Position numbers and translations under genes: made by a program
The notes under the pieces: generated by a model
Seen by the model: the letters and a program-made list of their open reading frames with translations, nothing else
What the model was told of the DNA's origin: nothing
Database searches by the model: none
Source of the DNA: Natronospirales bacterium
GTDB lineage: Bacteria > Pseudomonadota > Gammaproteobacteria > Natronospirales > REEB76
Direction: 5' to 3'
Assembly: GCA_021792635.1 (NCBI GenBank)
Contig: JAJYUH010000013.1
Span: forward strand, 2,862 to 66,861
Length of the DNA: 64,000 nt
Part shown: positions 5,685-59,314 of the stretch, one piece after another
Position numbering within the stretch: position 1 is the first letter of the stretch
Layout of the letters: every line of letters begins with the position of its first letter

Positions 5685-5720
5685 ATGTTTATTTCTTGAA
5701 ATAAATCCGGGAGGCCATAC

Positions 5721-10610: not shown

Positions 10611-10642
10611 TCTCGACAGGTCGCCCGCCAGCGAGTCCGTGC

Positions 10643-17836: not shown

Positions 17837-17852
17837 ACATATGGAGACTGGT

Positions 17853-19813: not shown

Positions 19814-21035
19814 CCTGGTCGAGAGCCTGCGCTCGGCCCTGCAGGCGATCCGCGCCCACGCGCTCCGCAGTTTCCTCACTACCCTGGGCGTCATCATCGC
19901 AGTAACGGCGGTGATTGCGGTGGTATCCCTGATTCAGGGATTCCGCCATTCCGTGACAACAACGTTCGCCAACATGGGCACCAATAGCCTTACCATCCAA
20001 TCGGATGAGACACAAGAAGATTACCTGACTGGAAAAGTGGTAAAAGTCACGCCCGATGATATGCGAGCCATCCAGCATGATGTCTCCGGCATCAGCAATA
20101 TCACACCGGTGCTTACACTCGCGGACTTCGGTTCCGGCGCAATCCAGTATGGTGACCAGATCGCCTACGCCGGCATATACGGCACCACCTCCTCCCACGC
20201 GGAAAACACCAGCTTTTACCCGGTAAGGGGGCGTTATATCACGCCCAGTGATGATTTGGACCACCGCCGCGTGGCGGTCATCGGCCAGACTCTGCTAACG
20301 GACCTCAATCTACCGAAGAATCCACTGGGCCAATACATCGAGATGTACGGCCAGTGGTTTAAGATCATCGGTGTGTTGAAGAAATTAGGCTCCATCGGGG
20401 GTCAGGATCAGGACGACCGCATCTACATCCCATACGGCACCGCTCACAGCCTGCTGGGGGCAGCCACGGTACCGGATGTCGCTATCAATCTAACTATCAA
20501 CAATCTGCAGAATCTGGACAGCGTGGTGGGACGTATCACTGAAGTGCTGCGGCGGCAGCACCATCTCAAACCGGGCCAGCACAACGACTTTCTGGTTCAG
20601 ACACCCGAACAAACGCTTGGAACCTTCAACAAGGTTCTAAATTCCATTACCCTGATCTTGGGTGGCATCGTTGGTATTTCACTCTTGGTGGGCGGCATCG
20701 GCATCATGAATATCATGCTGGTTTCGGTCACGGAACGTACCCGCGAAATCGGCATCTGCAAGAGTCTGGGGGCGCGCCGCCGCGACATTCTCCTGCAGTT
20801 CCTCATCGAAGCGGTAATCCTGTCTCTCATCGGAGGGATCATCGGTTTGCTGCTCGGTTACGGTATCGGTGTGCTGGTGGCGCACCTGGTCCCGCAATTT
20901 CTGGGCGCACACGTACCCTGGTGGGCGGTGGTGCTGGCCTTCGGGTTTGCCGCCGGGGTCGGTGTGCTGTTCGGCATCGCCCCCGCAGCCAAAGCCGCCT
21001 CCCTCAGCCCGATTGACGCTCTACGTTACGAATAG
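19806..21035 (+). CDS. ABC transporter permease, FtsX/MacB-type (copy 1)
   Basis: ORF 19758..21035. GTG 19806 gives (M)YNLVESLRSALQAIRAHALRSFLT, collinear with the N-terminus of the next gene. TM1, large periplasmic domain, three C-terminal TMs, GGIGIMNIMLVSVTERTREIG motif. Confidence 0.85.
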   Translation: MYNLVESLRSALQAIRAHALRSFLTTLGVIIAVTAVIAVVSLIQGFRHSVTTTFANMGTNSLTIQSDETQEDYLTGKVVKVTPDDMRAIQHDVSGISNITPVLTLADFGSGAIQYGDQIAYAGIYGTTSSHAENTSFYPVRGRYITPSDDLDHRRVAVIGQTLLTDLNLPKNPLGQYIEMYGQWFKIIGVLKKLGSIGGQDQDDRIYIPYGTAHSLLGAATVPDVAINLTINNLQNLDSVVGRITEVLRRQHHLKPGQHNDFLVQTPEQTLGTFNKVLNSITLILGGIVGISLLVGGIGIMNIMLVSVTERTREIGICKSLGARRRDILLQFLIEAVILSLIGGIIGLLLGYGIGVLVAHLVPQFLGAHVPWWAVVLAFGFAAGVGVLFGIAPAAKAASLSPIDALRYE

Positions 21036-21047
21036 ACGGCCGCGCAT

Positions 21048-22274
21048 ATGCACACCCTCATGGAAAGTCTGCGCTCTGCCTTCCAAGCCATCCGCGCCCA
21101 TGCTCTACGCAGCTTCCTGACCATGCTGGGCATCGTCATCGGAGTGATGGCGGTGATTGCAGTGGTATCCTTGATCCAGGGGTTCAGCAATTCCGTCACC
21201 AGTGAATTCAAGGGGCTGGGCGCCAACAGCCTCACCATACAATCCTACCTGCCCCGCAAGGATCGCCTCGCCGGCAAGGTCGCGAAAGTAACGCCGGATG
21301 ACCTGCTGGCGATCCAGCGCGGCGTCAGCGGTATCAGTGGCTTGAGCCCCATCCTGCCCGTGGGCCGATTCTACGGTACGGTGAAATATCGCAATCGGTC
21401 CACCCACAGCCGCATTCTCGGCACCACACCGGGTTTTGCGCTCAGCAACGGACAATATCCCGACCGTGGGCGTTTCATCACGCCGGACGATGATCTGCAT
21501 CACCATCACGTGGCAGTGATCGGTGTTACGCTGGTGAAAAAACTGCATCTGCCCGCGGACCCATTGGGACATTACATCCAAATGTCAGGGCAATGGTTCA
21601 GGGTGGTGGGTGTGCTCCATCCTCTGGGGCAGATCCTGGGTTTTGACCAGGATAACCGCGTGCTCATCCCCTACGGTACCGCACTCAGCCTGCAAGACGC
21701 CGCCGTCGTGCCGGACATCGCCATACAATTGAACGTGAACCATACCAAACAGATGGACGCGGTGGTGGCGCGCATCACGGAAATCCTGCGCCGCAATCAT
21801 CATCTGAAGCCCGGCCAGAACAATGACTTCAAAATCCAGACTCCGGCCCAATTGCTGGGAACCTTCACCAAGGTGCTCAATTCCATCACCCTGATTCTGG
21901 GCGGGATCGTGGCCATCTCGCTCCTGGTGGGCGGCATCGGCATCATGAACATCATGCTGGTATCGGTCACGGAGCGCACCCGCGAAATCGGCATCATGAA
22001 GAGCCTGGGAGCACGGCATCGCGACATCCTGATCCAGTTCCTTATCGAAGCGGTGACGCTGGCGCTCATCGGCGGCACCATCGGCCTGTTCTTGGGCTAT
22101 GGCACAGGCCTGCTGGTAGCCCATGCCGTACCCGAGTTCCGCGGTGCCCATGTACCCCTGTGGGCGGTAGTCTTGGCCTTCGGCTTCTCCGGCGGCGTGG
22201 GCATTCTCTTCGGTATCGTACCCGCCGCCAAGGCGGCGGCTCTCGACCCCATCGAGGCTTTGCGGTACGAATAG
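21048..22274 (+). CDS. ABC transporter permease, FtsX/MacB-type (copy 2, tandem paralogue)
   Basis: MHTLMESLRSAFQAIRAHALRSFLT...; same architecture and the same GGIGIMNIMLVSVTERTREIG motif. By eye it is roughly 60 percent identical to copy 1. Confidence 0.85.
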   Translation: MHTLMESLRSAFQAIRAHALRSFLTMLGIVIGVMAVIAVVSLIQGFSNSVTSEFKGLGANSLTIQSYLPRKDRLAGKVAKVTPDDLLAIQRGVSGISGLSPILPVGRFYGTVKYRNRSTHSRILGTTPGFALSNGQYPDRGRFITPDDDLHHHHVAVIGVTLVKKLHLPADPLGHYIQMSGQWFRVVGVLHPLGQILGFDQDNRVLIPYGTALSLQDAAVVPDIAIQLNVNHTKQMDAVVARITEILRRNHHLKPGQNNDFKIQTPAQLLGTFTKVLNSITLILGGIVAISLLVGGIGIMNIMLVSVTERTREIGIMKSLGARHRDILIQFLIEAVTLALIGGTIGLFLGYGTGLLVAHAVPEFRGAHVPLWAVVLAFGFSGGVGILFGIVPAAKAAALDPIEALRYE

Positions 22275-44695: not shown

Positions 44696-47600
44696 CTATT
44701 CGTCCCCGAGAGACAAAAGTGTGGCATTTCCGCCCATCGCTGCGGTATTGATGCTCACGGTACGTTCAGTGGCAAAACGATGCATATAGTAAGGTCCACC
44801 GGCCTTCGGCCCGGTACCCGACAAGCCCTGGCCGCCGAAAGGTTGCACCCCCACCACTGCGCCGATGATATTACGGTTGATGTACACATTACCCACGCGG
44901 ATATGCCGCTGGATATACTGCGCCTGGCTGTCAATGCGCGAATGTACGCCCAGGGTCAAACCATAACCGGTGTCATTGATGCTTGCGATGACCGCGTCAA
45001 GTTCGCTTGCCTTGAAGCGAATCACATGCAATACCGGGCCGAAGACCTCGCGCTTGAGTATATCCAGTGACGGTAATTCGACGGCCAGGGGCGCGACATA
45101 AGTACCGTGGGAACAATCTGCCGAAAGTTTGAGTTCATACAACACCTTACCCCGGGTCTTGATCCACTGTTTGTGTTCATCAAGATTTTTCCTGGCTTCA
45201 GCATCAATCACCGGGCCCACATCGGTTTTCAGGAATGCCGGATCACCCATGCTCAGCTCAGCCATGCAACCCATGAGCACTTCGATGATGCGCGGCGCGA
45301 TTTCTTCCTGCACAAACAGCACGCGCAATGCCGAGCAACGCTGACCGGCACTGTTGAACGCGCTGGCGATCACATCCGGTACCACCTGCTCCGGTAGCGC
45401 CGAGGAGTCCACCAACATGGCATTCTGGCCGCCGGTCTCGGCGATCAGTACCGGGATAATCCCACCTCGGTTGGCAAGTGTTTGATGAATGGCCTTGGCA
45501 GTCTCGGTGGAACCCGTAAACGCCACGCCGGCAATACGCGCATCCGCGACTGCATGCTGCCCCACCACCGAACCGCGACCGGGGATGAAATGCAGCACCT
45601 CACCGGGCACACCCGCCTGGTGCAGCAGTCGTACCGCCTGGGCACCGATGAGTGAAGTCTGTTCCGCGGGTTTGGCCAGCACCGCGTTGCCGGCGGCCAG
45701 CGCCGCGGTCATCTGTCCGGTGAAGATCGCCAGCGGAAAATTCCATGGGCTGATGCACACGAACACACCGCGTCCCTGCAACCACAATTCATTGGATTCA
45801 CCGGTAGGCCCGGGCAGGCGCAGGGACTTGCCAAAATCCTCTTCTGCCTGCTGGGCATAGTAATGCAGGTAATCCACCGCCTCACGCACTTCGGATACCG
45901 CATCGGGAATGGATTTGCCTGCTTCGCGCACGCACAGCGCCATGAGTTCGGCGGTATGTTCCTCAAACAGAGCGGCAGCACGGCGCAGAATACGCGCGCG
46001 CTCCGCAGCTGGCGTCATATCCCAGCCAGGCTGTGCGGCGGCCGCGATGTCCACCGCCTTGCGGATGGCATCGGCATCCGCTTCATGAATCATGCCAACG
46101 GTATGGCGGTTATCCGCGGGATTGAGGGAGGGTTTGGCTTTACCGGAGAGCACTTTGCCGCCGACAATGGGGGCGGCGACCCACTCACGCCGCATCGCTT
46201 GCTGCATGTCTCCGGCTAGCTTGTCCAGCACCGCCTGGTCCGTGAGATTCAGACCCCGGGAATTGCGCCGTTTGGCGCCGTATATGTCCGCCGGTAGCGG
46301 GATGCGCGGATGTGGTTTTACTTCGAACGCCTCCACTTCCGCCACAGGGTCGGCGACGATGCTTTCCACCGGCACTTCCTCGTCAATGATGCGGTTCACG
46401 AACGAAGTGTTGGCGCCGTTCTCCAGCAGGCGCCGCACCAGATAAGGCAGCAGATCCTCATGGCTGCCCACCGGTGCGTACACGCGGCAGTTGAGGCCGG
46501 GCTTGTCTCTCCCTACCACTTCGGCATACAGCTCCTCGCCCATGCCATGCAGGCGCTGGAACTCGAATTCCAGATCGTCACCCGCCATTTCCAGCACGCT
46601 GGAAAGCGTTTGGGCGTTATGGGTGGCAAACATGGGGTATAGCACATCGCGGTGCGTCAGCATCTTGCGTGCGCAGGCGAGATAGGAAACGTCGGTGCTG
46701 AGTTTGCGCGTGAACACCGGATAGCCGTCAAGGCCGCGTTCCTGGGCGCGTTTCACTTCACTGTCCCAATAGGCGCCCTTCACCAGCCGCACCGGAATGC
46801 GGCGCTTACCCTCTTTGCCCAGCACCAGCAACCAGTCTAATACGCGGATGGCGCGTTTCTGATAAGCCTGCAACGCCAAGCCGAAGCCTTCCCAGCCGCT
46901 CAATGACGGCGAGCGATACACCGCTTCGATGAGGTCCAGCGACAGTTCCAGGCGGTCGGCTTCCTCCGCATCCACCGTCAAACCCATGCCATATTTCCGG
47001 GCATGCTCCGCGAGAGTCAGCAGCTTGGGCGCAAGCTCCATCATCACCCGTTCGTGTTGAGCCATCTCGTAACGCGGATACAGGGCCGAGAGCTTCACCG
47101 AAATGCCGGGTGCCGCAAACACGCTCTGTTTCTCCGAAACCGTCGCACCGATGGCATCAATGGCTTTGCCGTACTCGTCAAAGTAGCGCTGTGCATCCGT
47201 CGCTGTCAGCGCCGCTTCGCCCAGCATATCGTAGGAATGCCGGTATGCGTGATACTCTTCGCTTTTGGCACGTTTCAGTGCCTCTTCAATGCTGCGCCCC
47301 ATGACGAACTGGTGCCCCATGATGCGCATGGCCTGACGGAAGGCAGCGCGGATCACCGGTTCACCGAGGCGGGTTACCAGCTTTGCCATGTAATTCGAAA
47401 CATTTTTCTCCACGCTCTGATCAAGCGAGACAAGTTTGCCTGTGAGCATCAGGCCCCAGGTGGAGGCATTCACAAACAGCGATGGGCTGGCACCCAAATG
47501 ATCCGCCCATTTGCCGTTCACGATCTTGTCGCGAATCAGCTTGTCGGCCGTATCAGCATCTGGAATTCGCAACAAGGCTTCCGCCAGACACATGAGTACC

Positions 47601-47887
47601 ATGCCTTCCTGGGAAGACAGATCGTACTGACGCAGGAATTCTTCCACCCCGCCTTTGGGCTTGCGGTGCGCGCGCACCGCCCGCACCAGATCAGCAGCGC
47701 GCGCCCGGATACGCTGTCGCGCCGCCGCCTCGATCTTCGCCTGACTGAGCAGGGCGTCCACGCAGCGGGTTTCATCGGCGAGATACAGCTCGTTGATGGC
47801 GGCGCGCAGCGGCTTGAGTACGGGGGACGCTCCGTCGAATACGAAACGCGAATGAGAAATCACTTCCGAATCAGCAGGTTGGTACAT
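44696..47887 (-). CDS. putA: Bifunctional proline dehydrogenase / L-glutamate-gamma-semialdehyde dehydrogenase
   Basis: 1063 aa: PRODH TIM barrel followed by an aldehyde dehydrogenase domain with catalytic Cys (FNSAGQRCSALRVL). No N-terminal ribbon-helix-helix domain is evident. Confidence 0.9.
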   Translation of the reverse strand: MYQPADSEVISHSRFVFDGASPVLKPLRAAINELYLADETRCVDALLSQAKIEAAARQRIRARAADLVRAVRAHRKPKGGVEEFLRQYDLSSQEGMVLMCLAEALLRIPDADTADKLIRDKIVNGKWADHLGASPSLFVNASTWGLMLTGKLVSLDQSVEKNVSNYMAKLVTRLGEPVIRAAFRQAMRIMGHQFVMGRSIEEALKRAKSEEYHAYRHSYDMLGEAALTATDAQRYFDEYGKAIDAIGATVSEKQSVFAAPGISVKLSALYPRYEMAQHERVMMELAPKLLTLAEHARKYGMGLTVDAEEADRLELSLDLIEAVYRSPSLSGWEGFGLALQAYQKRAIRVLDWLLVLGKEGKRRIPVRLVKGAYWDSEVKRAQERGLDGYPVFTRKLSTDVSYLACARKMLTHRDVLYPMFATHNAQTLSSVLEMAGDDLEFEFQRLHGMGEELYAEVVGRDKPGLNCRVYAPVGSHEDLLPYLVRRLLENGANTSFVNRIIDEEVPVESIVADPVAEVEAFEVKPHPRIPLPADIYGAKRRNSRGLNLTDQAVLDKLAGDMQQAMRREWVAAPIVGGKVLSGKAKPSLNPADNRHTVGMIHEADADAIRKAVDIAAAAQPGWDMTPAAERARILRRAAALFEEHTAELMALCVREAGKSIPDAVSEVREAVDYLHYYAQQAEEDFGKSLRLPGPTGESNELWLQGRGVFVCISPWNFPLAIFTGQMTAALAAGNAVLAKPAEQTSLIGAQAVRLLHQAGVPGEVLHFIPGRGSVVGQHAVADARIAGVAFTGSTETAKAIHQTLANRGGIIPVLIAETGGQNAMLVDSSALPEQVVPDVIASAFNSAGQRCSALRVLFVQEEIAPRIIEVLMGCMAELSMGDPAFLKTDVGPVIDAEARKNLDEHKQWIKTRGKVLYELKLSADCSHGTYVAPLAVELPSLDILKREVFGPVLHVIRFKASELDAVIASINDTGYGLTLGVHSRIDSQAQYIQRHIRVGNVYINRNIIGAVVGVQPFGGQGLSGTGPKAGGPYYMHRFATERTVSINTAAMGGNATLLSLGDE

Positions 47888-47952
47888 GCAAGCTCCACAG
47901 CGGGGAAATCATGCCGGAACCGTTGTGGCTCCGGATAATCGAGCGCTCTATT

Positions 47953-48705
47953 TTACTGAATTGGCCGGGGAAATGCCGTGATCCGGTGGGCTGCGAGCCG
48001 TTCATAGTGAGGCCGGCACTGCTTTGCAAGCCGCGCCTGGAATGCGGTCAATTTCTCCTGTCGCGGGTGATAGGGCCCAAACCCCGTGGATTGCTCCACG
48101 GTCCGGTACCAGTATTTCGCCCATACGCCGTCGCTGGCACGGGAACCCGCCGGCCAGCGGAGCATGCATCCGCTGAAAGCAATGTTCAGGCACACGCACA
48201 GTGCGCGCAACATGCCGGCGGGATCCTTCAATACGTCAGCCGCATCCAGTACCGCTGGTGCAGCGCCTATCTGTTGGCATACCTGATCGAACAACCGGGC
48301 CTGTTGTTCGAACCCGAGTTCCCATGGGGCAGCGTCCGGGCGATTCTGAGTAAAAGAGGCCACCACCTCCTCCGGAGCACGGATCAGAAAGCAATTATTT
48401 ATCTGCCGCAACCAATCCAGAGGGATCTCCGGCAGCATGTGCTGAGTCATGTGCTTCTGGTACCAGATGGCTTTGCCGCCGGGAACAGGGCCGGTAAGCA
48501 TTCTCACCACGGTTCGCCAGTCGGTGGATTGCGAGGCGATCACCTGCTCACGGCCCGGGTGATTGACACCGGTGTTGAGGAGGTAGTACGCATAGAAAGG
48601 TTCATCCACTACCGCCGTGTCATCACGGTTCTCCCAGGCACGCATCAGGGCCGTGGAGATGTTGCGCGGCCCGGACCACATGGCGATCCGCAGCGGCTCC
48701 TTCAT
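47953..48705 (-). CDS. Uncharacterised sulfotransferase-fold-like protein
   Basis: MKEPLRIAMWSGPRNISTALMRAWENRDDTAVVDEPFYAYYL... I recall this family only as a conserved hypothetical or sulfotransferase-like protein. Start overlaps the upstream stop (ATGA). Confidence 0.5.
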   Translation of the reverse strand: MKEPLRIAMWSGPRNISTALMRAWENRDDTAVVDEPFYAYYLLNTGVNHPGREQVIASQSTDWRTVVRMLTGPVPGGKAIWYQKHMTQHMLPEIPLDWLRQINNCFLIRAPEEVVASFTQNRPDAAPWELGFEQQARLFDQVCQQIGAAPAVLDAADVLKDPAGMLRALCVCLNIAFSGCMLRWPAGSRASDGVWAKYWYRTVEQSTGFGPYHPRQEKLTAFQARLAKQCRPHYERLAAHRITAFPRPIQ

Positions 48706-49628
48706 ATCCGTGGACCCTGCTTGCTCTCCTGTTTCACGAGTTCCATGTAAAGTTGCTGCAAGCGCTCCACCATCGGCCCGCGTTTGCCATCGCCCATCCT
48801 GCGGCCGTCAATTTCCGTGACCGGCACCAGCCCGGCGAATGTGCCGGTCACAAACGCTTCTTCGGCGCCGTAAACATCGGTGAGGCTGAAGTCCTTCTCA
48901 AACGCCGGAATATCATTTTCGCGGCACAGGCGCAGCACGTTTGCGCGGGTGATCCCACCGAGGCAATACTTGCCGGTCGAGGTCCAGACCTCGCGCTTAC
49001 GCACGATGAAGAAATGGGTTGAATTGCAGGTGGCGACAAAGCCGTGAGGGTCGAGCATCAGCGCTTCGTCATACCCGGCTTTGCCGGCCTGAATGCAGGC
49101 AAGGATGCAGTTCAGCTTGGAATGGCTGTTGAGCTTCGGATCCTGAACATCCGGCGGCCCGCGGCGCACGTGCACAGTGAACAATCGGATACCCTGCTCC
49201 ACGGTGGTCGGCAGCGGCTCCTTGTATTCCGGGATGATCACCACGGTGGCCGGCGAAATTACAAAGCGCGGATCCTGATGGGGCGTGGCCTTGATGCCGC
49301 GCGTCACCATCAGACGGATATGCACATGGTCGTGCATGCGGTTGGCGCGCAGCACTTGCAGCAGGCGCTCGGTCAACTGCATGCGCGTCAAACCGATGTC
49401 CATGTCAATGGCCCTGGCGCCCTCATAGAGGCGGTCCAAATGCAGATCGAGAAACGGCAGGCCGCCGTCGTGCAGGCGCAAGCCTTCCCACACGCCGTCG
49501 CCCAGCACGAAGCCGCTGTCGAACACCGAGACTTTGGCTTCCGCGCGCGGCACCAATTCGCCGTTCAGGCTGATCTTGATCTGCGAGTTGCGTGGGTCGT
49601 GTTGATAATCATGCGTGCCCTTGGCCAT
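48702..49628 (-). CDS. Class IV (fold type IV) aminotransferase, branched-chain/D-amino-acid type
   Basis: ORF 48702..49697; ATG 49628 (GGAGAA upstream) gives MAKGTHDYQHD... Contains ISLNGELVPRAEAKVSVFDSGFVLGDGVWEGLR, typical of class IV enzymes. Confidence 0.8.
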   Translation of the reverse strand: MAKGTHDYQHDPRNSQIKISLNGELVPRAEAKVSVFDSGFVLGDGVWEGLRLHDGGLPFLDLHLDRLYEGARAIDMDIGLTRMQLTERLLQVLRANRMHDHVHIRLMVTRGIKATPHQDPRFVISPATVVIIPEYKEPLPTTVEQGIRLFTVHVRRGPPDVQDPKLNSHSKLNCILACIQAGKAGYDEALMLDPHGFVATCNSTHFFIVRKREVWTSTGKYCLGGITRANVLRLCRENDIPAFEKDFSLTDVYGAEEAFVTGTFAGLVPVTEIDGRRMGDGKRGPMVERLQQLYMELVKQESKQGPRI

Positions 49629-49805
49629 GAAGTTCTCCGTAATGCGCGTCGCCCGGATAAAACGCTGGTTTGCTGTAAAAAACACCGACCGCCACACTAT
49701 ATCAAGAGTCTATAATCCGGTCAGTGGCGGATGACGGGCCGAGCCGGTATCTAACATGGCGGGCGCCCGGCAGCTCATCAGGCCGGCCAATCGAGGAGAG
49801 CTCTC

Positions 49806-51536
49806 ATGGGAAGAATCATCGCCGAACAAATGGTGGACATGATAGCGGATGCCGGTATCCGACGGGTGTACGGCGTCACCGGCGACAGCCTGAACCTCCT
49901 CAATGACGCCATCCGCCGCGACGGCCGCATCCAGTGGATTCATGTGCGCCACGAAGAGGCCGGCGCCTACGCCGCTATGGCGGAAGGCATTTTGGGCGGT
50001 TTCGGCTGTTGCGCCGGCAGTTCGGGACCGGGTCACGTACACCTCATCAACGGCTTGTATGACGCGCACCGCTGGGGCGCGCCGGTGCTGGCGCTGCCCT
50101 CCACCATCGAGCGGGACGAATACGGCATGCAATCGTTCCAGGAAACCGATCTGCGCATGTTCGACGGGTGCAGCCATTACAACCAGCTGGCGCAGATCCC
50201 GAAACAACTGCCGCGCATGCTGCAGCAGGCGATGCAGCATGCTCTGTCGCTGAAAGGCGTGGGTGTGTGCGGCTTTGGCGGTGACCTGCTGGATCAGCCG
50301 GTCGCGGAAGATGCCATTGTCTCGCCGGTTTACCGCCCGCAGACGCTGCTGCGCCCGATGGATGAAGAGCTCGACAAGCTTGCCAAATTGCTGAACAGCG
50401 CGGACAAGGTGGTGATCTACGGCGGCATCGGCTGTCGTGGTGCGCATGCCCAGGTCATGGCATTAGCCGGAAAACTCAAAGCGCCGGTTGGTTACACACT
50501 CAAAGGCAAGATGGATCTGGAATACGATAATGCTTTTGACACCGGCATGACCGGTTTCCTCGGCGGTGCCGCGGCCACCGACGCCATCCACGAATGCGAC
50601 GTGCTGCTGATGCTGGGTACCGATTTCCCCTGGAAGGATTTTCTGGTGACCAGGGCCAAGGTTGCGCAAATACTCGACCGCCCTGAACGCCTGGGACGCC
50701 GCGCACGCGTGGAACTGGGCCTATGCGGTGATATTGCACCGACACTCGATGCGCTGCTGCCAATGATCGAGCTGAAACGCGATGATAGTTTCCTAAAGGA
50801 TCGTCTGGCGGCACGCGCCAGGGACAAGGAACGCCTGCAAAAGCACGCCGCCGATCCGGGCAAGCACGGCTCTATCAGTCCCGAATATCTCGCCAGGCTG
50901 CTCGATAAGTACGCCGACAAGGATGCGATCTTTACCTCAGACACCGGCATGAGCACGGTATGGGCGGCGCGCTACCTGTGCGCCACCGGCCAGCGCACGC
51001 TGTTTGGATCGTATTCACACGGCTCCATGGCCAACGCCATGCCCCAGGCCATCGGTGCGGCCTTGGCCGGCGATGGTCGCCAGGTGATCGCCTGCTGCGG
51101 CGACGGCGGCATCTCCATGCTGCTTGGCGACATGATGACCGTGGCGCAATACCAGCTGCCGGTGAAATTGATTGTGTTCAACAATGGCTCGCTCGGCATG
51201 GTCGAGATCGAAATGCAGCTCGCGGGCATACCCGACAATCAGACTGATCTGCCGGACCCGAAATTTGCGCAGGTGGCTGAAGCCTGCGGCATCCGCGGTC
51301 TGCGCGTTGAGGACCCCGCCAAGCTGGATACCGCCATCCAGGACGCGCTCGCCTGCGCCGGCCCGGTGCTGGTGGACGTCACCACCAGTCACAATGCCGT
51401 GGGCATGCCGCCGCACACCACCCTGAAACAACTGCGCGCCTACACCGTCAGCCAGGCCAAGATGCTGTTCGATGGCCGCAGCCTCGAAGTCTTACGGCAC
51501 TTCAAGGAAAACCTGAAGTATCTTGGCGACCTCTGA
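49806..51536 (+). CDS. poxB: Thiamine-diphosphate-dependent pyruvate dehydrogenase (quinone) / pyruvate oxidase
   Basis: N-terminus ...RRVYGVTGDSLNLLNDAI..., TPP motif GDGGISMLLGDMMTVAQYQLPVKLIVFNNGSLG, 576 aa. GAGGAG RBS. Confidence 0.82.
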   Translation: MGRIIAEQMVDMIADAGIRRVYGVTGDSLNLLNDAIRRDGRIQWIHVRHEEAGAYAAMAEGILGGFGCCAGSSGPGHVHLINGLYDAHRWGAPVLALPSTIERDEYGMQSFQETDLRMFDGCSHYNQLAQIPKQLPRMLQQAMQHALSLKGVGVCGFGGDLLDQPVAEDAIVSPVYRPQTLLRPMDEELDKLAKLLNSADKVVIYGGIGCRGAHAQVMALAGKLKAPVGYTLKGKMDLEYDNAFDTGMTGFLGGAAATDAIHECDVLLMLGTDFPWKDFLVTRAKVAQILDRPERLGRRARVELGLCGDIAPTLDALLPMIELKRDDSFLKDRLAARARDKERLQKHAADPGKHGSISPEYLARLLDKYADKDAIFTSDTGMSTVWAARYLCATGQRTLFGSYSHGSMANAMPQAIGAALAGDGRQVIACCGDGGISMLLGDMMTVAQYQLPVKLIVFNNGSLGMVEIEMQLAGIPDNQTDLPDPKFAQVAEACGIRGLRVEDPAKLDTAIQDALACAGPVLVDVTTSHNAVGMPPHTTLKQLRAYTVSQAKMLFDGRSLEVLRHFKENLKYLGDL

Positions 51537-51543
51537 AATGTAA

Positions 51544-51563
51544 CGGCGGCCTCACGGCCGCCG
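51544..51563. terminator. GC hairpin between convergent poxB and icd
   Basis: CGGCGGCC-tcac-GGCCGCCG; 8-bp perfect stem but no clear U-tract. Confidence 0.4.
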
Positions 51564-51590
51564 CAAACATAACCAGGGTTACCACACCCG

Positions 51591-52832
<1,242 letters not shown>

Positions 52833-52895
52833 GGTTTTCCTCTGGAGCGAAGTTGGAATGTTCATGGATGCGGCCGCAGACGCGGCGCGCCGCGA

Positions 52896-53819
52896 TTATA
52901 CAGTAATGGGTTCGCAGGCCGGCCCCTGAAGAGCCAAGGTGCCGGAGCGGCCGGCCACCTCGCCCATGATCACCGTATGGATGGGCAGGGTCTTGCGGTC
53001 GAGGGTCGCCGCCACGGTCCGAGTGGCTACCAGTTCATATCCCTGGCTGCGCCAGCCCGCCAGCAGCTTCTCGAACACCGGGCTCAAGGCCATGCCCTCG
53101 AGCTCCGCATGCAGGGTGAACACCTGACCGTGGTCCGACGGCCGGTCCTGCGTAAGTTTTAACAGATGCTCCGCCACGTTCTCCACGGTGATGCCGTTGA
53201 TACCCACGAGCTCGTCGAGGGTCGGCAAGGTGGTGGGGAGTTGCGGCACCCGGAATGTCCGCCCGCCCATGGAAGGCAGGAACGGAAAGCTGCCGCGGGT
53301 ATCGCTGGCATAGTCGAAGCCGAACTGTTCTTGCAGTGCCAGCACATACTCATTGATCTGCCAACCGGCGGCACCGAAGGTTTTGGGCGCCGCACCGAAC
53401 ACTTCACCGAAACGCGCCACGGCTTTGCCGAATTCCCGCGCCGTCCAGTCCGCATCGCGCCGAGCCACGAAATCCTGCCAGCGGATGTGATCCCAGGTGT
53501 GAATGCCGACCTCAAATCCCGCGTCCCGCACCGCGCGCATGGCCGAGGCGCCCTTCACGCCGATGTCAGGTCCCGGAATCAGCGTGCCGTACATGAGGGT
53601 TTTCAGGCCGTAATTGCCGGCCACGTTGGTGCGGAAAACTTTCTTGAGGAACCCCGGACGGAATATCCGCCGCAGCGCCCGGCCGGTATTGTCCGGTCCG
53701 AGACTGAACAGGAACGTGGCCTGCGCCGCGTGTTTTTGTAAAACGGAAACCAGAGACGGCACGCCTTCCAGCGTGCCGCGCAGGGTGTCCACATCAATTT
53801 TTAGCGCAAGGAAATTCAT
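52896..53819 (-). CDS. arnD: ArnD-like 4-deoxy-4-formamido-L-arabinose-phosphoundecaprenol deformylase (polysaccharide deacetylase family), intact copy
   Basis: ORF 52896..53882. ATG 53819 gives MNFLALKIDVDTLRGTLEGVPSLVSVLQKHAAQATFLFSLGPDNTGR..., collinear over its whole length with E. coli ArnD as I remember it (GLRIDVDTFRGTREGVP...FFSVGPDNMGR). Confidence 0.78.
   Translation of the reverse strand: MNFLALKIDVDTLRGTLEGVPSLVSVLQKHAAQATFLFSLGPDNTGRALRRIFRPGFLKKVFRTNVAGNYGLKTLMYGTLIPGPDIGVKGASAMRAVRDAGFEVGIHTWDHIRWQDFVARRDADWTAREFGKAVARFGEVFGAAPKTFGAAGWQINEYVLALQEQFGFDYASDTRGSFPFLPSMGGRTFRVPQLPTTLPTLDELVGINGITVENVAEHLLKLTQDRPSDHGQVFTLHAELEGMALSPVFEKLLAGWRSQGYELVATRTVAATLDRKTLPIHTVIMGEVAGRSGTLALQGPACEPITV
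53764..53786. repeat. 23-nt core CCTTCCAGCGTGCCGCGCAGGGT, copy A (inside intact arnD)
   Basis: Exact string read on the plus strand; encodes TLRGTLEG on the minus strand. Confidence 0.9.
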
Positions 53820-53972
53820 AAAGCATCCATGGCCGCTGAAAATCAAGTGGGGTACAGCCGGTCGCTCATCCAGCGAATGCAAGAAGATCCGAAAACCCTT
53901 CCCTGGTTTTTTCAGGCTCGGCGCATTCCTGCACCGTGGATACTCTGAACCAATCAGGGTTTCCCGCGCAGG

Positions 53973-55139
53973 TCAGGTTTCCCGCAACGCCTGGGCCACG
54001 GGCAGGCGCGCGGCACGAAGGGCCGGGAACAGGCCGCCGATGAACCCCATGACGACGGCCAGCACCAGCGCGGTCACGATCAATCCCGGCGTAACCGCGA
54101 AATTGAACGCCACCAGCGCGCCATTGCCGAGCGTGCTGGCCTGATAACCATTGAAAACCAGGTAGGCAACCAGTACGCCGGCGCCTCCGCCGCATAAACC
54201 CAGTGCCACGCCTTCCAGCATCATTGCGCACAGAATGGGCAGGCGCGCAAATCCCAGCGCCCGCAGGGTGGCGATGTCCTGCATGCGGTTGGCGATGTTG
54301 GAATACAGGATGTTGATGGCACCGAATACCGCACCGATGGCCATGAGCAGCGTAATAATGCCGCCGATCAGGGTAATCACGGTACTCAGACCCCGAGCGG
54401 TTTGCCGGAAATTAGTGCTTTCCTGCACGGCGGTGATACTCAACCGGGGATTGTGCTCCAACGCCTGCTTGAAGGCCGGGAATGCTTCAGGCGAGGTGAG
54501 GCGCACATAGGCGTTGGCGTACTGGTTGATGGCGTTATAGGCCGCCTGCAATTGGCCCACATCGGTCCAGATCTCCGATTCGCGTATGCCGCCGCCATCG
54601 GCAAATATACCCACCACTTTCCAGGCATGATGATTCCAGTTGAAGGTGTCGCCCAGAGACAGGCCCTTGAACAGCCGTTCCGCTTTCCGGCCCACGATGA
54701 TCTCATCCAGGCCGGGCTTGAACAGGCGGCCCCGTACGATATGGAACTTGGGCCAAACGCCGGATATTCCCGCGCCCACACCGCGGAAATTCACGCTGCC
54801 GAGCAAGCCGCTGCTGCGCGTGGGAATCTGCGCGGACGCGATAAACGTTCCCATCACCAACGGGCCGTTGGCGCCCTGAGCCACGCCCGGAGCCTGGCCG
54901 ATCGCATGCAGCGCATTGTCGTCCAGAGGGCTGTTATTGCCGCCGACGATGGCCACATCGTTGGAGCCGGTATCCGCCATGACCGCACTGAAGCCCTGCT
55001 GGATGGACAGCACCGCCACAAATACCAGCACCACGCCGAAAAAGCCCGCCACGGCCACGGCGGAAGGCCGCAGCCGGCCGGGAAGTCCGCGAAAATTCCA
55101 TGCGCACACGACCAGGATTTGCTGCATGATGCCCCTCAT
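53973..55139 (-). CDS. ABC transporter permease, FtsX-type (second permease of operon 2)
   Basis: ORF 53973..55217. ATG 55139 lies 1 nt after the upstream stop. TM1, periplasmic domain, three C-terminal TMs. Confidence 0.8.
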   Translation of the reverse strand: MRGIMQQILVVCAWNFRGLPGRLRPSAVAVAGFFGVVLVFVAVLSIQQGFSAVMADTGSNDVAIVGGNNSPLDDNALHAIGQAPGVAQGANGPLVMGTFIASAQIPTRSSGLLGSVNFRGVGAGISGVWPKFHIVRGRLFKPGLDEIIVGRKAERLFKGLSLGDTFNWNHHAWKVVGIFADGGGIRESEIWTDVGQLQAAYNAINQYANAYVRLTSPEAFPAFKQALEHNPRLSITAVQESTNFRQTARGLSTVITLIGGIITLLMAIGAVFGAINILYSNIANRMQDIATLRALGFARLPILCAMMLEGVALGLCGGGAGVLVAYLVFNGYQASTLGNGALVAFNFAVTPGLIVTALVLAVVMGFIGGLFPALRAARLPVAQALRET

Positions 55140-55140
55140 G

Positions 55141-56298
55141 TCACGACTTCCGCAACGCTTCGGCGACGCGCAGACGCGTGATCCGCTGCACCGGCACCAG
55201 CCCCGCCAGTAAGGCAAAAACGATGCTCAGCAGAATCCCCAGGCCCGCGGCACCCCAGGTCAACGCGAAGGTCTGCAGAATATTCCCCACGCTGGGGTAA
55301 AGCAGCCGCGTCACCTCGTAGCCCAGGGCCAGCCCCAGCACTGCACCCGATACGATCAGTAACAGCGATTCCTGCAATACCAGGCGCGCCAGCCAGCCAC
55401 GCTCGAATCCCAACCCCCGGAGAATGGCAAACTCCGCGGTGCGCTCCTGCACGGATTGGGCCAGGGTGTTGCTGATGATCAACAACAGGCTGAAGAACAC
55501 TGCGATGCCCACGTAGATCACCATGGCGCTGACGTCACCGAACTGCCGGATATAGCTGATGGTCTCCGCCGCTTCCGACTGGGTCAGGGTCTGGGGGGAG
55601 GAATTCTTGAATAACCCGTCAATAGCACTCGCTATCGCGGTGGCGTCCCGTGGATCCGTTATGCGCTCGATATACTGAAACACAATGTTCTGGAGCCTCG
55701 GGTTGGCCACACCTTCGTTGAAGTATCGGTAATGGGCCACGAAAAAACTCTGGTAGGCCGCGGGCAGATCGGCGTGGTAAATGCCGTCCAGGTGGAAATA
55801 CCAGGTGGTACTGCCGTCCTTCTGCGGAACCTTGGACTGGATGGGGATGGTTTCACCCACCTTCCAACCCATGCGCCTGACCAGTGCCGGTCCGACGATG
55901 ACGCCCTGCCGGTCGGTGAGCCAAGCGTGCATCTGCGCGGGCGGCAGGGTGGCTTCCCGGTATACCTGAAGAAACGTCGGTGAAAATACCAGAACCTGCA
56001 AACGGTCCCTCGGATCCTTGAAGTAGCCCTGGAAACCGTTGAGATAGGTCACTGCCGTCACGCCAGGCACCGTGACGATCTTGTCGTAGTAGCTCACAGG
56101 CAGCGGGCTGCCCTGGGATATCTTGTTATTGGTCTCCAGCCGTTCCGCCACGGAAAACGTCAACTGTCCCAGCATGCCCTGACGCACCGCCGCCAGCACG
56201 CTGAACAATACGAACGCCACCACCACGGACAGGAAGGTAAACAGCGTGCGCGCCTTGCGGCGGCGCAGCGCACTCCAAACCAGGGTCGGGGTGTTCAT
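55141..56298 (-). CDS. ABC transporter permease, FtsX-type (first permease of operon 2)
   Basis: MNTPTLVWSALRRRKARTLFTFLSVVVAFVLFSVL...; FtsX-type topology. Start overlaps the ATPase stop (ATGA). Confidence 0.8.
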   Translation of the reverse strand: MNTPTLVWSALRRRKARTLFTFLSVVVAFVLFSVLAAVRQGMLGQLTFSVAERLETNNKISQGSPLPVSYYDKIVTVPGVTAVTYLNGFQGYFKDPRDRLQVLVFSPTFLQVYREATLPPAQMHAWLTDRQGVIVGPALVRRMGWKVGETIPIQSKVPQKDGSTTWYFHLDGIYHADLPAAYQSFFVAHYRYFNEGVANPRLQNIVFQYIERITDPRDATAIASAIDGLFKNSSPQTLTQSEAAETISYIRQFGDVSAMVIYVGIAVFFSLLLIISNTLAQSVQERTAEFAILRGLGFERGWLARLVLQESLLLIVSGAVLGLALGYEVTRLLYPSVGNILQTFALTWGAAGLGILLSIVFALLAGLVPVQRITRLRVAEALRKS

Positions 56299-57011
56299 GC
56301 TTCCGGTTTCTCGCCGAGCACGCCCTTGTTCATGTACAGCGTCCGCCGGGCTTTGGCGGCGGCATGCGGATCATGGGTCACCATGAGGATGGTCTTGCCG
56401 TGCTCCCGGTTGAGAAGTTGCAGCAGTTCCAGGATTTCATCCCCGGCGGTGCGGTCCAGGTCACCGGTGGGTTCGTCGCACAGCAACACCGTGGGATCGC
56501 TGACGATGGCGCGGGCAATGCCGACGCGCTGCTCCTGGCCGCCGGAAAGCTCGGTGGGTTTTTGTCCCGCGTGCGCCTCCATGCCGACGAGTGCCAGCGC
56601 CACCTGCGCGCGTTTTCTGCGTTCCGCCGCCTTGAACCGGGTCAACATCAACGGCAACTCCACGTTCTGCGCCGCGGTCAGCAACGGCAACAGATGATAG
56701 GTTTGGAACACAAAGCCGATATGGCGTGCGCGCCAGGCGGACAAGGCGCGTTCGCTCAACCGGTGGATGGGTTGCCCGCCCACCAAGACTTCACCCGCGC
56801 TCGGCCGATCCAGACCGCCCAGAATATTCATGAGCGTGGTCTTGCCGGAGCCCGAGGGTCCCATCAGGGCAAGAAAATCGCCGCGCGGCACCTCCAGATC
56901 GAGGCGCTTCAGCACCTCGACAGTTTCAGACCCGCGCTGGTAGAGCTTGGTAACGCCCCGCAGGCTCACCAACGCCCGGTTCTGAGAATCTGCCGCAATC
57001 ACACTGGCCAT
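56295..57011 (-). CDS. ABC transporter ATP-binding protein
   Basis: Walker A GPSGSGKTT, signature LSGGQEQRVGIARAI, Walker B LLCDEPTGDLD, H-loop VTHD. Confidence 0.9.
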   Translation of the reverse strand: MASVIAADSQNRALVSLRGVTKLYQRGSETVEVLKRLDLEVPRGDFLALMGPSGSGKTTLMNILGGLDRPSAGEVLVGGQPIHRLSERALSAWRARHIGFVFQTYHLLPLLTAAQNVELPLMLTRFKAAERRKRAQVALALVGMEAHAGQKPTELSGGQEQRVGIARAIVSDPTVLLCDEPTGDLDRTAGDEILELLQLLNREHGKTILMVTHDPHAAAKARRTLYMNKGVLGEKPEA

Positions 57012-57062
57012 GGAAACTCCTTCAAAGTACTACATGAGGCATTATCGCGATCCGGATCGCTG

Positions 57063-58295
57063 TCACGACCCCGTTCCCTGCGTGCGCACCGCTTCCCCTG
57101 CCCGCAGCCGTGCGTGCGTGGATAGTATCAATTGCTCGCCGCCGCTCAGGCCGGACAGCACCCTGACCTGGCCTTGGGTCGCCGGCACGGTATGGACGGG
57201 CTGCCGTTGGATATGCCCGGCCACCACCAAGAATACATATTGGCTGCCACGACTACCATACACCGCACTCTCCGGGATCCGGATGCGGGCGATACGCGGT
57301 TCGGAGTGCCCGCCGGGTGTGGCGTAAAACCACGCCTGCACCCCCATCTGCGGCAGGATGCGGGGATCGAGCTTGTCAAAGGCGATGCGCACCTTGACGG
57401 TGGCTTTCTCCTTGTTGGCCGTGGGCACCACACTGATGACATGGGCCGGGATGCGCCAGTCGGGATAGGCGTCCAATACCGCCATCACCGGCTGGCCCGC
57501 ATGCACGCGCTGGATATAGGCCTCGTTCACGTCCACGTCGAGTTCAAGCGAGCGCATGTCCACCAGCATGCAGATGCCGGTTTTGGTGAAGCCGCCCACG
57601 GCGGCGGGCGAGATCATCTCGCCCGGATGGGCGTACTTCTCCGTGACCATCCCCGAGAACGGTGCACGGATCACTGTGTAACCCAGCTCGATGCGGCTGA
57701 GCCGGAGATTATTCTCATCCACGCGCACCCGGCCGCGGGCATGGGCGATATTCGCCGCATCCATGTTCACCGACGCCTCGGCATTGTCGAGATCCGCGCG
57801 GCTGAGCAATCCCTGTTTCACCAGCGTGCGCGTGCGCGCGAGCGTCTTCTCATCCCGGAGCCACTGCGCCTGAAATTGCGCCACGGACGCGCGATCCGCC
57901 TGAACTTGGCTGGCCGCCACCGCCACATCCGCCCGCGCGGCGCTGTCATCCAGCCGCGCCAGCACCTGGCCTTTCCGGACGTGCATGCCTTCCTGCGCAT
58001 ACACCGCGCGAATCATGCCGGTAATTTGCGAGGATACCGTGGCCTGCTGTTCCGCCACCACGTAGCCCGAGGCGTTCAGCACGTTATCGCCCGCCGCCCC
58101 CCCCGCCGGCGCCGTTACTACCAGCGTCCGCACCCGCACCGGCCGGGAGTGATAAATCCACCAGCCAGCGACAACCATGATGGCAACCACAGCGGCGCCA
58201 ATCACTGCCGCGATCCAACCGCGCCTCCCGCGGGCGGGTTGCGGCTCGTCGTCGCGATCAATCTTGAGGGAATTCACCGCGTCATTCTTGTCCAT
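57063..58295 (-). CDS. Efflux periplasmic adaptor (HlyD/MFP family)
   Basis: ORF 57063..58310 (TTG); ATG 58295 gives MDKNDAVNSLKIDRDDE... Membrane anchor, coiled-coil (ADVAVAASQVQADRASVAQFQAQ...), beta-barrel. Confidence 0.82.
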   Translation of the reverse strand: MDKNDAVNSLKIDRDDEPQPARGRRGWIAAVIGAAVVAIMVVAGWWIYHSRPVRVRTLVVTAPAGGAAGDNVLNASGYVVAEQQATVSSQITGMIRAVYAQEGMHVRKGQVLARLDDSAARADVAVAASQVQADRASVAQFQAQWLRDEKTLARTRTLVKQGLLSRADLDNAEASVNMDAANIAHARGRVRVDENNLRLSRIELGYTVIRAPFSGMVTEKYAHPGEMISPAAVGGFTKTGICMLVDMRSLELDVDVNEAYIQRVHAGQPVMAVLDAYPDWRIPAHVISVVPTANKEKATVKVRIAFDKLDPRILPQMGVQAWFYATPGGHSEPRIARIRIPESAVYGSRGSQYVFLVVAGHIQRQPVHTVPATQGQVRVLSGLSGGEQLILSTHARLRAGEAVRTQGTGS

Positions 58296-58486
58296 GACGG
58301 TACCTTGCAATTGAAAATCCTATTGCCGGGGAAAGCATAGTACGCACATTCCTGCTGCCGGGGGCTTGAAATACCGATAAAAGCGCAATTTTCACAAACA
58401 AGCCATGCAGATTTTTGCGATCCGTCCGGCAATCAGCATCTGGGCTGCTCCGTCCCGCCCAGGAGCGGGAGGCAGTCGCCGCATCG

Positions 58487-58644
58487 CCGGTATTGTCCGG
58501 CCTGAGGCTGAACAGGAACGTGGTCTGCACACTGTGCTTTTGCAGCACATCCACAAGCGGCGGTACGCCTTCCAGCGTGCCGCGCAGGGTATCCACGTCA
58601 ACTTTGAGAGCGAGTTGCGGGGGTGCGGAGGGAGCGGCGGTCAT
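58487..58644 (-). pseudogene. Displaced 5-prime fragment of an arnD-like gene (copy B)
   Basis: Reads MTAAPSAPPQLALKVDVDTLRGTLEGVPPLVDVLQKHSVQTTFLFSLRPDNTG, then loses collinearity with ArnD. Weak out-of-frame similarity (QMLIAGRIA vs GTLIPGPDIG) may continue to about 58417. By eye about 80 percent nt identity to 53684-53810. Its ATG overlaps the toxin stop (ATGA). Track ORF 58282..58662 runs on into the adaptor start. Confidence 0.7.
58568..58590. repeat. 23-nt core, copy B
   Basis: Identical 23-mer on the plus strand. Confidence 0.9.
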
Positions 58645-58934
58645 GACCAACGGCCTTTCCAATACTCGGGGCGCCGATGCTGGTGGGCGACGGCCACGAT
58701 CAAAATTTCACCCTTGCGGACCTCGTAAATCAACCCAAAGGGAAAACGTCTCAAGCGGCACACTCGCGTGCGCCGGCTCAATGGGTGCCAGGCATGCGGA
58801 TAACGCTGAATGCGGCTGAGCGCGGCGCGGGTTTCCTGTTCGAAAATTTCACCCAGTCCGGTGAGCTGCTCTTCGTAATAAGCGACCGCTTCCGCCAAAT
58901 CGCTAACTGCCGCTTCGAGAAATCGCAGCTTCAT
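58641..58934 (-). CDS. Type II toxin, RelE/ParE family
   Basis: 97 aa; MKLRFLEAAVSDLAEAVAYYEEQ...RRFPFGLIYEVRKGEILIVAVAHQHRRPEYW, the typical ParE/RelE plasmid-stabilisation pattern. Lies 2 nt downstream of the antitoxin gene. Confidence 0.8.
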   Translation of the reverse strand: MKLRFLEAAVSDLAEAVAYYEEQLTGLGEIFEQETRAALSRIQRYPHAWHPLSRRTRVCRLRRFPFGLIYEVRKGEILIVAVAHQHRRPEYWKGRWS

Positions 58935-58936
58935 CC

Positions 58937-59176
58937 CTAATTCTTGTTCTTGTGTAACTTGGTAAGTGCCTGGTCGGCTTCAATGGCCCGCATCTCTCCC
59001 TGATCAAAGGCCGCCAGCCGCCGCTCGGCTTCCTCGGCCCACTGCGCCTGAATGGCTTCATCCGGCTCGTCAAGACTCGACAACAGTTCATCCACCAACC
59101 TGGCCCGTTCGGCGGGTGGCAGGCGCCTGGCCTGCTCCAATAAAATCCGCGTTTGTTCAGTCATGGCGTTCTCCAT
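58937..59176 (-). CDS. Type II antitoxin (addiction-module component family)
   Basis: 79 aa; ...RLPPAERARLVDELLSSLDEPDEAIQAQWAEEAERRLAAFDQGEM..., the pattern I associate with antitoxins partnered with ParE/RelE toxins. Alternative start ATG 59164. Confidence 0.7.
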   Translation of the reverse strand: MENAMTEQTRILLEQARRLPPAERARLVDELLSSLDEPDEAIQAQWAEEAERRLAAFDQGEMRAIEADQALTKLHKNKN

Positions 59177-59246
59177 TCAACGAATGCCAACACCCATGGC
59201 GCCCAAGCATACCGCAAGAATGACATTGCCCGCTGGTCGCCGGGCC

Positions 59247-59314
59247 AGCGCCAGCACCCCTTCCAGCGTGCCGCGCAGGGTGCCCACATCTATTTTTAGG
59301 GCAAGTTGTTTCAA
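59247..59314 (-). pseudogene. Displaced extreme 5-prime fragment of an arnD-like gene (copy C)
   Basis: TTG AAA CAA CTT GCC CTA AAA ATA GAT GTG GGC ACC CTG CGC GGC ACG CTG GAA GGG GTG = LKQLALKIDVGTLRGTLEGV. It aligns codon-for-codon with the start of intact arnD, and similarity stops right after the shared 23-nt core. TTG overlaps the stop of the upstream GAF-membrane gene (TTGA). The remnant ORF stop abuts the antitoxin ATG (TGAATG). Confidence 0.65.
59259..59281. repeat. 23-nt core, copy C
   Basis: Identical 23-mer on the plus strand. Confidence 0.9.

Follow-up and report, generated by a model that had tools for sequence, protein, structure and literature searches.

The 64-kb stretch of DNA considered here (contig JAJYUH010000013.1 of a Natronospirales bacterium, positions 2,862 to 66,861; referred to as the window) poses a question: why does the beginning of one gene, arnD, occur three times on the same strand, with a toxin-antitoxin (TA) pair and a four-gene efflux operon lying between the copies? 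arnD is part of the operon for the modification of lipopolysaccharide (LPS) with 4-amino-4-deoxy-L-arabinose (L-Ara4N). The original prediction for this DNA read the repeated arnD starts as att-like sites at which cassettes devoid of an integrase had accreted, and mentioned a patchwork generated by homologous recombination, with arnD as its anchor, as an alternative. Comparison with related loci lends better support to the latter. We propose that the arrangement arose by serial, homology-anchored displacement with an illegitimate join on the upstream side, and that the additional arnD starts are the scars of these events rather than recombination sites; we give this reading a probability of roughly 65%.

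Anatomy of the arnD locus

Read along the (-) strand, the segment between 61.1 and 52.9 kb contains the genes and gene remnants listed below, followed by icd.

59311-61062, (-): GAF1, a membrane protein with a C-terminal GAF domain (Pfam GAF matches)
59245-59315, (-): copy C, the stump of a resident arnD (arnD nt 1-73; 71 nt long; nhmmer)
59177-59244, (-): promoter-like upstream region of the TA unit (alignment with the antitoxin-upstream regions of loci L186, L191 and L012)
58937-59176, (-): antitoxin of the Unstab_antitox / TIGR02574 family (PF09720, 1e-16; NCBIfam TIGR02574)
58641-58934, (-): toxin of the ParE/RelE family (PF05016, 2e-10)
~58473-58644, (-): copy B, an arnD 5′ stump (approximately arnD nt 1-159, with one 5-nt deletion; nhmmer)
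58282-58644, (-): open reading frame (ORF) of 120 codons starting with stump B, annotated in every assembly as a gene of 120 aa
53973-58295, (-): MacAB/DevCBA-like efflux operon of four genes (Pfam and NCBIfam matches, as for its members)
57063-58295, (-): HlyD-type periplasmic adaptor
56295-57011, (-): ABC ATPase
55141-56298, (-): first FtsX permease
53973-55127, (-): second FtsX permease
52896-53819, (-): copy A, the intact arnD, with icd downstream

A repeat search bore out the claim that the arnD start is present three times in the same orientation; it returned a three-copy family (53750-53810, 58554-58614 and 59245-59305) with 84-89% identity and a longer pair of 129 nt formed by copies A and B (53682-53810 and 58486-58614) with 80% identity. 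When an nhmmer profile built from 27 arnD 5′ ends of the clade was used, copy C was aligned with model positions 3-73 (window 59315-59245; E=3e-17) and copy B with model positions 9-159 (window 58618-58473; E=2e-38; one 5-nt deletion), and the latter also matches the NCBIfam ArnD model at residues 3-45. Copy A encodes ArnD, the 4-deoxy-4-formamido-L-arabinose-phosphoundecaprenol deformylase; it matches NF011923 over the full length (residues 5-298; E=1e-74) with a score of 251 bits, which lies under the equivalog cutoff of 382 bits. Its orthologues in relatives are found right after arnT-arnEF-arnB-arnC-arnA(FT)-arnA(DH), which places the gene within the arn operon.

The interval between copies C and B holds only the antitoxin and ParE genes, and that between B and A only the efflux operon, just as had been described from the sequence. 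GAF1 is the last member of a tandem array of paralogues, and its stop codon overlaps the TTG start of copy C in the motif TTGA; likewise, the ParE stop and the ATG of copy B share ATGA, and the stop of the copy C reading frame abuts the upstream ATG of the antitoxin in TGAATG. All three of these junctions were correctly recorded beforehand. Two details have to be amended: the similarity of copy C to arnD does not stop at the edge of the 23-nt sequence that is common to the three copies, but extends about 14 nt beyond it, to 59245; and gene callers place the antitoxin start at 59164, not at 59176.

Past its arnD-derived portion, the ORF that starts with stump B consists of unrelated sequence, and it shares 14 nt with the start of the HlyD gene. 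It belongs to no Pfam family, and neither local alignment nor nhmmer detects arnD similarity past about nt 159. Its product is probably non-functional as an enzyme, and the ORF may serve as a translational bridge. The notion that stump B represents a decayed arnD reaching up to the HlyD start was rejected, with an alignment score of 39 versus 34 +/- 5 for shuffled sequences and an nhmmer envelope that ends at about nt 159.

The closest relative carries an empty site

Relatives were collected through ArnD scans of species-representative genomes and of metagenomes, complemented by look-ups of the genomic context of adaptor and ParE homologues. The closest relative found is locus L010, which is 98-100% identical to the window over GAF2 and 97-100% over the 3′ two-thirds of icd. 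The comparison requires three further features of the window.

61169-62938, (-): GAF2, a tandem paralogue of GAF1
63055-63966+, (-): GAF3, a tandem paralogue cut by the end of the window
52450-52832, (-): 5′ part of icd, within the divergent tract (identity between window and L010)

L010 has the arrangement GAF2-GAF1-TTGA-arnD-icd and is thus an empty site; the ancestral state that had been postulated, a GAF membrane gene overlapping arnD, exists there with exactly this junction. Collinearity between the window and L010 runs from 62940 down to 59254, a point 52 nt into arnD and inside copy C, where it stops abruptly. Copy C itself is 94% identical to the GAF1/arnD junction of L010. Copy A and the arnD gene of L010 share only 58-88% identity, and the first ~400 nt of icd about 88%, before identity rises to 97-100% beyond approximately 52450. 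In a comparison with multiple taxa, a sister relationship between the window and L010 is confined to the 3′ part of icd. Hence, a tract of about 6.8 kb (59254 to about 52450) sets apart two genomes that are nearly identical elsewhere, and its right end, the jump in identity expected of a homologous crossover on one side of an imported tract, is situated inside icd and not at any of the arnD repeats. Judged from these alignments, copy A would be the allele linked to the efflux operon and not the one that originally followed GAF1.

GAF1 is a mosaic when compared with L010, with blocks of 95%, 80%, 97% and 65% identity, a pattern that suggests gene conversion among the paralogues. The array as a whole (GAF1-GAF3, 59311-63966) consists of paralogous membrane proteins of about 580 aa, of which relatives possess 1 to 5 copies.

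A hypervariable slot upstream of arnD

In this clade, the ancestral operon has the order arnT-arnEF-arnB-arnC-arnA(formyltransferase)-arnA(decarboxylase)-[slot]-arnD-icd. At least six kinds of content occupy the slot between arnA(DH) and arnD in about 50 loci, and the cargo is always co-oriented with the arn operon.

17-20 nt only: L115, L116, L118, L120, L121
A lipoprotein gene of ~180 aa, in one or two copies: L110, L114, L117, L119, L124, L125, L020
A low-GC ORF: L063, L106, L113
One to five GAF genes: L001, L003-L007, L009, L010, L057, L110, L127
A TA pair: L012, L186-L193
The efflux operon: L099

The slot upstream of arnD is a hotspot of gene gain in this uncultured gammaproteobacterial clade. 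Besides the empty site of L010, the intermediate sites that had been predicted exist as well: GAF-TA-arnD is present in L012, L191 and L192, and TA-arnD in L193, where the upstream part of the locus is cut off. The ParE homologues of L186-L193 (73-81% identity) adjoin arnD or occupy the same slot, and the efflux operon is 90% identical at the nucleotide level to that of L099, where it directly follows arnA(DH). The order of the modules differs among lineages (GAF-TA-arnD, TA-GAF-arnD, efflux-GAF and GAF-TA-efflux). The GC content of the cargo in the window (0.57-0.67) matches that of its flanks, which fits an exchange of DNA among relatives.

Several minor observations concern the same operon in other genomes. 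The low-GC ORF encodes 201 aa and has a GC content of 40-44% in host genomes of about 60% GC (L063 2407-3012; identical in L106, 67% nucleotide identity in L113). In L186, arnD is in two pieces of 88 and 216 aa (10232-11152), and it is intact with 306 aa in the sister assembly L187 (3559-4479); the split is a frameshift or an assembly error. A gene with a TfoX_N domain, found in a family of competence regulators, lies just upstream of arnT in L186 (749-1060), and such a gene would fit with natural transformation in these bacteria. Variation extends to the interval on the downstream side of icd (window 49806-51589; among relatives, e.g., L010 12317-18980): poxB abuts icd in the window and in L002, L003, L015 and L019, and it is absent or 3-7 kb away from icd in other relatives.

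Each module has its own arnD junction, and no stump ends at the same point

The stumps in the window retain the junctions that are characteristic of other lineages. Copy C keeps the GAF-TTGA-arnD junction typical of GAF-type genomes, in which the TTG start overlaps the GAF stop; copy B keeps the ParE-ATGA-arnD junction, and the same 4-nt overlap is intact in L191-L193. The TA pair together with copy B is collinear with the TA-arnD segment of L012, and copy B would be what is left of an arnD that arrived along with the TA pair. The efflux operon, a 150-nt spacer and the first ~280 nt of copy A are common to the window and L099, with 90% identity.

Remnants of arnD with other end points were found elsewhere. 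L186-L190 have the order arnA(DH)-antitoxin-ParE-arnD′-GAF-arnD-icd, in which the remnant comprises nt 6-86, is visibly decayed and bears five changes in the segment corresponding to the 23-mer. L099 has the order arnA(DH)-lipoprotein 5′ stump-efflux-arnD′(nt 3-284)-GAF fragment-GAF2; its lipoprotein stump has about 65 codons and its GAF fragment, which precedes the GAF2 start, 146 nt (L099 7349-7603 and 12083-12610). The stumps end at nt 73 (C), 159 (B), 86 (L186-L190) and ~284 (L099), all of them different, and copies C and B are each still joined to the older module upstream through its start-codon junction. No joint between a stump and a module is reused. The efflux operon is preceded by copy B plus 177 nt in the window and by the lipoprotein stump in L099; the TA pair is preceded by copy C in the window, by no stump in L012 and L191, where it lies between GAF and arnD, and by arnA(DH) in L186. 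Second copies of the arnD 5′ end were confined to the species of the window, L186-L190 and L099 when 80 genome and 80 metagenome loci were searched with blastn-short, low-stringency tblastn and nhmmer.

At the join between copy C and the TA unit, the heptanucleotide GGCGCTG is a candidate microhomology, being present both in an allele of arnD nt 66-72 and at the left edge of the upstream regions of TA units. The TA upstream region of the window (59177-59244) has no homologue among the fetched loci beyond those used to define it. When all loci were searched with the spacers 59177-59253, 58296-58490 and 53820-53975, matches were restricted to contigs of the same arrangement, with the addition of L099 for the arnD-proximal spacer.

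Proposed serial displacement of arnD

We base the proposed mechanism on the observed anatomy, on the existence of empty sites and of sites with intermediate content, on breakpoints that vary, on junctions specific to each unit and on a mosaic of identity whose right-hand crossover falls in icd. Related lineages carry units that are each fused to their own arnD start, namely GAF plus arnD (TTGA), antitoxin-ParE plus arnD (ATGA), and efflux plus the 150-nt spacer plus arnD. Incoming DNA from such relatives, consisting of cargo and arnD, with or without icd, would replace the resident arnD. At its downstream end, it would be integrated by a homologous crossover in arnD or icd, and at its upstream end by an illegitimate join within the 5′ part of the resident arnD, the displaced copy of which would survive as a 5′ stump on its own, older upstream module. 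At least two such events, or a single one with a donor that was already stacked, would yield GAF1-arnD′(73 nt) | TA-arnD′(159 nt) | efflux-arnD(intact)-icd. We infer the order of the events, the illegitimate nature of the left-hand joins and the route by which the DNA entered the cell. Most likely, the process is ordinary recombination at a hotspot, as part of mosaic genome evolution, and no new mechanism is involved.

The serial stacking of modules that was envisioned originally is retained, and two of its particulars are not. Insertion had been placed within the first ~20 codons of arnD; the window has its breakpoints at nt 73 and 159, and other lineages have theirs at nt 86 and ~284. Each module had been thought to regenerate a functional 5′ end of arnD; the last module is followed by an entire foreign arnD and about 400 nt of foreign icd.

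A number of points weigh against serial displacement. All comparison genomes are metagenome assemblies, and the arnD stump of L099 is interrupted by a scaffold gap (10 N in a row). arnD is hypervariable throughout the clade (68-92% nucleotide identity in its 3′ half), so L010, and not the window, could be the recombinant in arnD and the 5′ part of icd. No donor with a complete efflux-arnD-icd unit, which was sought via HlyD homologues, or with TA-B-efflux was found, and the left-hand joins can therefore not be reconstructed from both parents; the HlyD homologues recovered were that of L099 (89%), located in the arn slot but rearranged, and others of 66-69% identity that follow a LytTR two-component system in a region of LPS-core genes. 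In the window as in L099, the shared efflux region begins within a few nucleotides of the start codon of HlyD; from random illegitimate joins, a less tidy left edge would be expected. Furthermore, two of the four stumps, those ending at nt 73 and 86, terminate within 6-19 nt of a conserved hairpin in arnD, and this proximity could hint at a break site that is not random.

Alternative explanations

The alternative that survives best is a RecA-dependent traffic of the Campbell type, in which circles composed of a module and an arnD 5′ segment, formed when stacked arnD 5′ repeats recombine homologously or when the ends of a fragment are joined, would re-insert through a single homologous crossover at the 5′ end of arnD in related strains; the arnD starts would then be portable homology handles of integrase-less modules. 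Direct repeats around each module are the expected product of a single crossover, the same three types of modules occur in different orders in related lineages, and patchy variants in the copies of L095 and L098 suggest that the repeats recombine. A reused circle predicts, however, a constant stump length and a constant joint between stump and module, and every joint is unique; it also predicts a native arnD body, yet copy A and the 5′ part of icd diverge from L010. Stretches of 73-159 nt with 80-90% identity are, moreover, a poor substrate for RecA. We regard this route as unlikely.

The att-like accretion proposed originally would require cassettes lacking an integrase that are mobilized in trans, with a crossover core in codons 12-19 of arnD and a new 5′ end delivered by each cassette. 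Its foundation is the 23-mer that had been reported as identical in the three direct repeats, and this sequence is indeed present exactly at 53764, 58568 and 59259; the window contains no further match even if three mismatches are allowed, and none is expected in shuffled sequences. The empty and one-module sites and the replacement arnD start on each module can also be cited in its favor. The 23-mer encodes TLRGTLE(G), however, and is the commonest allele of the conserved TLRGTLEG motif in the clade: it occurs exactly in 7/28 and with no more than one mismatch in 13/28 of the clade arnD genes that cover the region, and the residues beneath it are almost invariant in 140 homologues. Its identity among the copies is explained by constraint on these codons, possibly with a contribution of gene conversion. 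Conversion is suggested by variants that the copies of sister strains have in common in patches: copy B of L095 has the C-like AAAATAGA and GGGGTGCC and copy B of L098 is A-like in its distal part.

As a crossover core, the 23-mer fares poorly. In copy C of sister strains, GGCTCG replaces GGCACG inside it, and the stump of L186 has the five substitutions mentioned above. The stump ends at nt 73, 86, 159 and 284 are incompatible with a single crossover point, the TA pairs of L012 and L191 reside between GAF and arnD without an upstream stump, and the last repeat is followed by a foreign gene body in a tract that reaches into icd. The absence of an integrase, already noted in the original prediction, holds for the proteins scanned in the window: Pfam detected no integrase, recombinase or transposase in the module genes, in the stump-B ORF or in 30 other large ORFs, a scan that left aside the small ORFs, poxB, icd, GAF3, three genes at 44696-49697, and the genes at 66-605 and 1631-2158. 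Modules of 0.7 and 4.8 kb carry no mobility gene, and the window contains no tRNA gene. Given its variable breakpoints and unique junctions, an accretion at att-like sites comparable to that of dusA islands is very improbable.

The remaining structural feature in the repeats is a hairpin.

53756-53779, (-): GC-rich hairpin of 10 bp in the arnD codons for RGTLEGVP (structure prediction)

The hairpin lies in codons 14-22, and the 23-mer constitutes its 5′ arm and loop; the same codons are present in B (~58560-58583) and C (~59251-59274). Hairpins of 10-12 bp with a free energy of -13.5 to -24 kcal/mol are predicted in 27/27 clade sequences. Two stumps, those of nt 73 and 86, terminate a short way 3′ of the hairpin, a circumstance that also speaks for the att-like reading, the core of which falls within this stable structure. 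One may imagine the hairpin as a targeted site of breakage or capture, used by a trans-encoded, hairpin-recognizing recombinase or giving rise to structure-induced template switching, so that the arn slot would be a platform for integrase-less cassettes and the two stumps its direct products. In 140 sequences, the stem pairs are mostly fixed by Gly, Thr, Val and Pro codons, and covariation at three synonymous stem pairs is weakly above that of shuffled sequences (the score was reached by 2/500 shuffles); such a role for the hairpin strikes us as highly doubtful. An Rfam scan of 52800-59500 gave no match, a promoter scan found none, and terminator-like matches were at chance level, the arnD hairpin excepted.

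A cassette array of the integron type was considered and rejected: the Pfam scans found no integrase, the module ends have no other repeat in common, and the sole recurrent hairpin lies in the coding sequence of arnD, where the RGTLEGVP codons largely explain it.

An artefact of assembly or binning, in which strain mixtures collapsed into a chimeric contig with false repeats, is scarcely credible, even if all data stem from metagenome assemblies, several contigs end at one point in the antitoxin gene and two short contigs fuse AT-rich DNA to copy C or to the middle of the antitoxin gene, for the order GAF1-C-TA-B-efflux-A recurs in independent assemblies of different samples and studies, and the stretch of identity among the repeats is just 23 nt, far under the k-mer size in the contig names (k141). 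At least ten contigs, drawn from several samples and from two studies, have this arrangement, and some of them extend over all of GAF1-C-TA-B-efflux-A; this recurrence in independent contigs argues that it is not produced by assembly; strain variants with the stacked arrangement include L095 (97.8% identical, spanning GAF1 to copy A of arnD) and L096 (88%).

With respect to the contig ends, five independent contigs start at one point at about 59104 in the antitoxin gene, 170 nt upstream of ParE. In L088 (1-140), the DNA attached at this mid-antitoxin point is AT-rich and codes for a P-loop-kinase-like fragment, and L084 (1-203) has unrelated AT-rich DNA instead of GAF1, fused directly to the TTG of copy C. 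These joins may be population variants or chimeric assemblies, and the AT-rich ends of both contigs have no match among the fetched loci.

Relation to known systems

Serial displacement of arnD has its nearest counterpart in the homology-facilitated illegitimate recombination proposed for the effector-immunity arrays of the Vibrio cholerae type VI secretion system (T6SS) and for the orphan arrays of Rhs and contact-dependent inhibition (CDI) systems (PMC5361080 and references therein). That model expects a homologous crossover at one end of the imported tract and, at the other, a non-homologous join that usually involves a few nt of microhomology. In both cases, modules are anchored on a conserved neighbor, the displaced gene is left behind as a truncated remnant, the stacked order records the history of the array, and there is no integrase. 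At the arn slot, the polarity is mirrored: the anchor (arnD-icd) is located downstream, and it is 5′ ends that persist as remnants. Instead of polymorphic toxin and immunity genes, an LPS-modification operon here contains a TA pair, an efflux operon and membrane genes resembling sensors as its cargo; and the mechanism here is inferred, not demonstrated.

Gene-gain hotspots are described for many bacteria; those that lack mobile elements and are driven by recombination in the flanking core genes (PMC5635113) resemble the arn slot in that varied accessory genes are present between the same conserved genes, integrases and transposases are missing, and the flanking genes are recombination mosaics. 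The arn slot differs from them by its position inside an operon and by its co-oriented cargo; in addition, simple double homologous recombination leaves no stumps, and an illegitimate join is therefore needed here.

Genomic islands and prophages at dusA possess an adjoining tyrosine integrase and semi-conserved attL/attR sequences of 21 bp at a fixed position, they leave the native gene body in place, and their excision restores dusA (PMC4482086). Like them, the arn slot shows events at the start of a conserved gene, with a remnant of that start upstream and an insert that brings a new 5′ end; it has no adjoining integrase, no fixed repeats and no native gene body, and its breakpoints vary. 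A gene of the Dus family of tRNA-dihydrouridine synthases is present in the window (11735-12733, (-)), with no adjoining island or integrase.

An L-Ara4N operon can, accordingly, harbor a hypervariable slot that accumulates TA pairs, efflux pumps and sensor-like membrane genes by ordinary recombination and in which gene stumps record the order of events. The locus is also a cautionary case, as direct repeats of the 5′ end of a gene around cargo can mimic att sites where no site-specific system operates. The gene arrangement further suggests that the efflux pump is co-expressed with lipid A modification; if so, this may bear on the resistance of these soil bacteria to antimicrobial peptides.

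Other genes in the window

A second MacAB-type operon with the order adaptor/ABC/FtsX/FtsX is present at 17841-22274 on the (+) strand. Its adaptor is only 26% identical to that of the arn slot, so the two operons are not recent duplicates. The region 2562-10055 contains adjacent genes for an outer-membrane protein of the ShlB/FhaC type with POTRA, a PP2C phosphatase and a Ser/Thr kinase of 1444 aa, the C-terminus of which carries an FGE-sulfatase-like domain.

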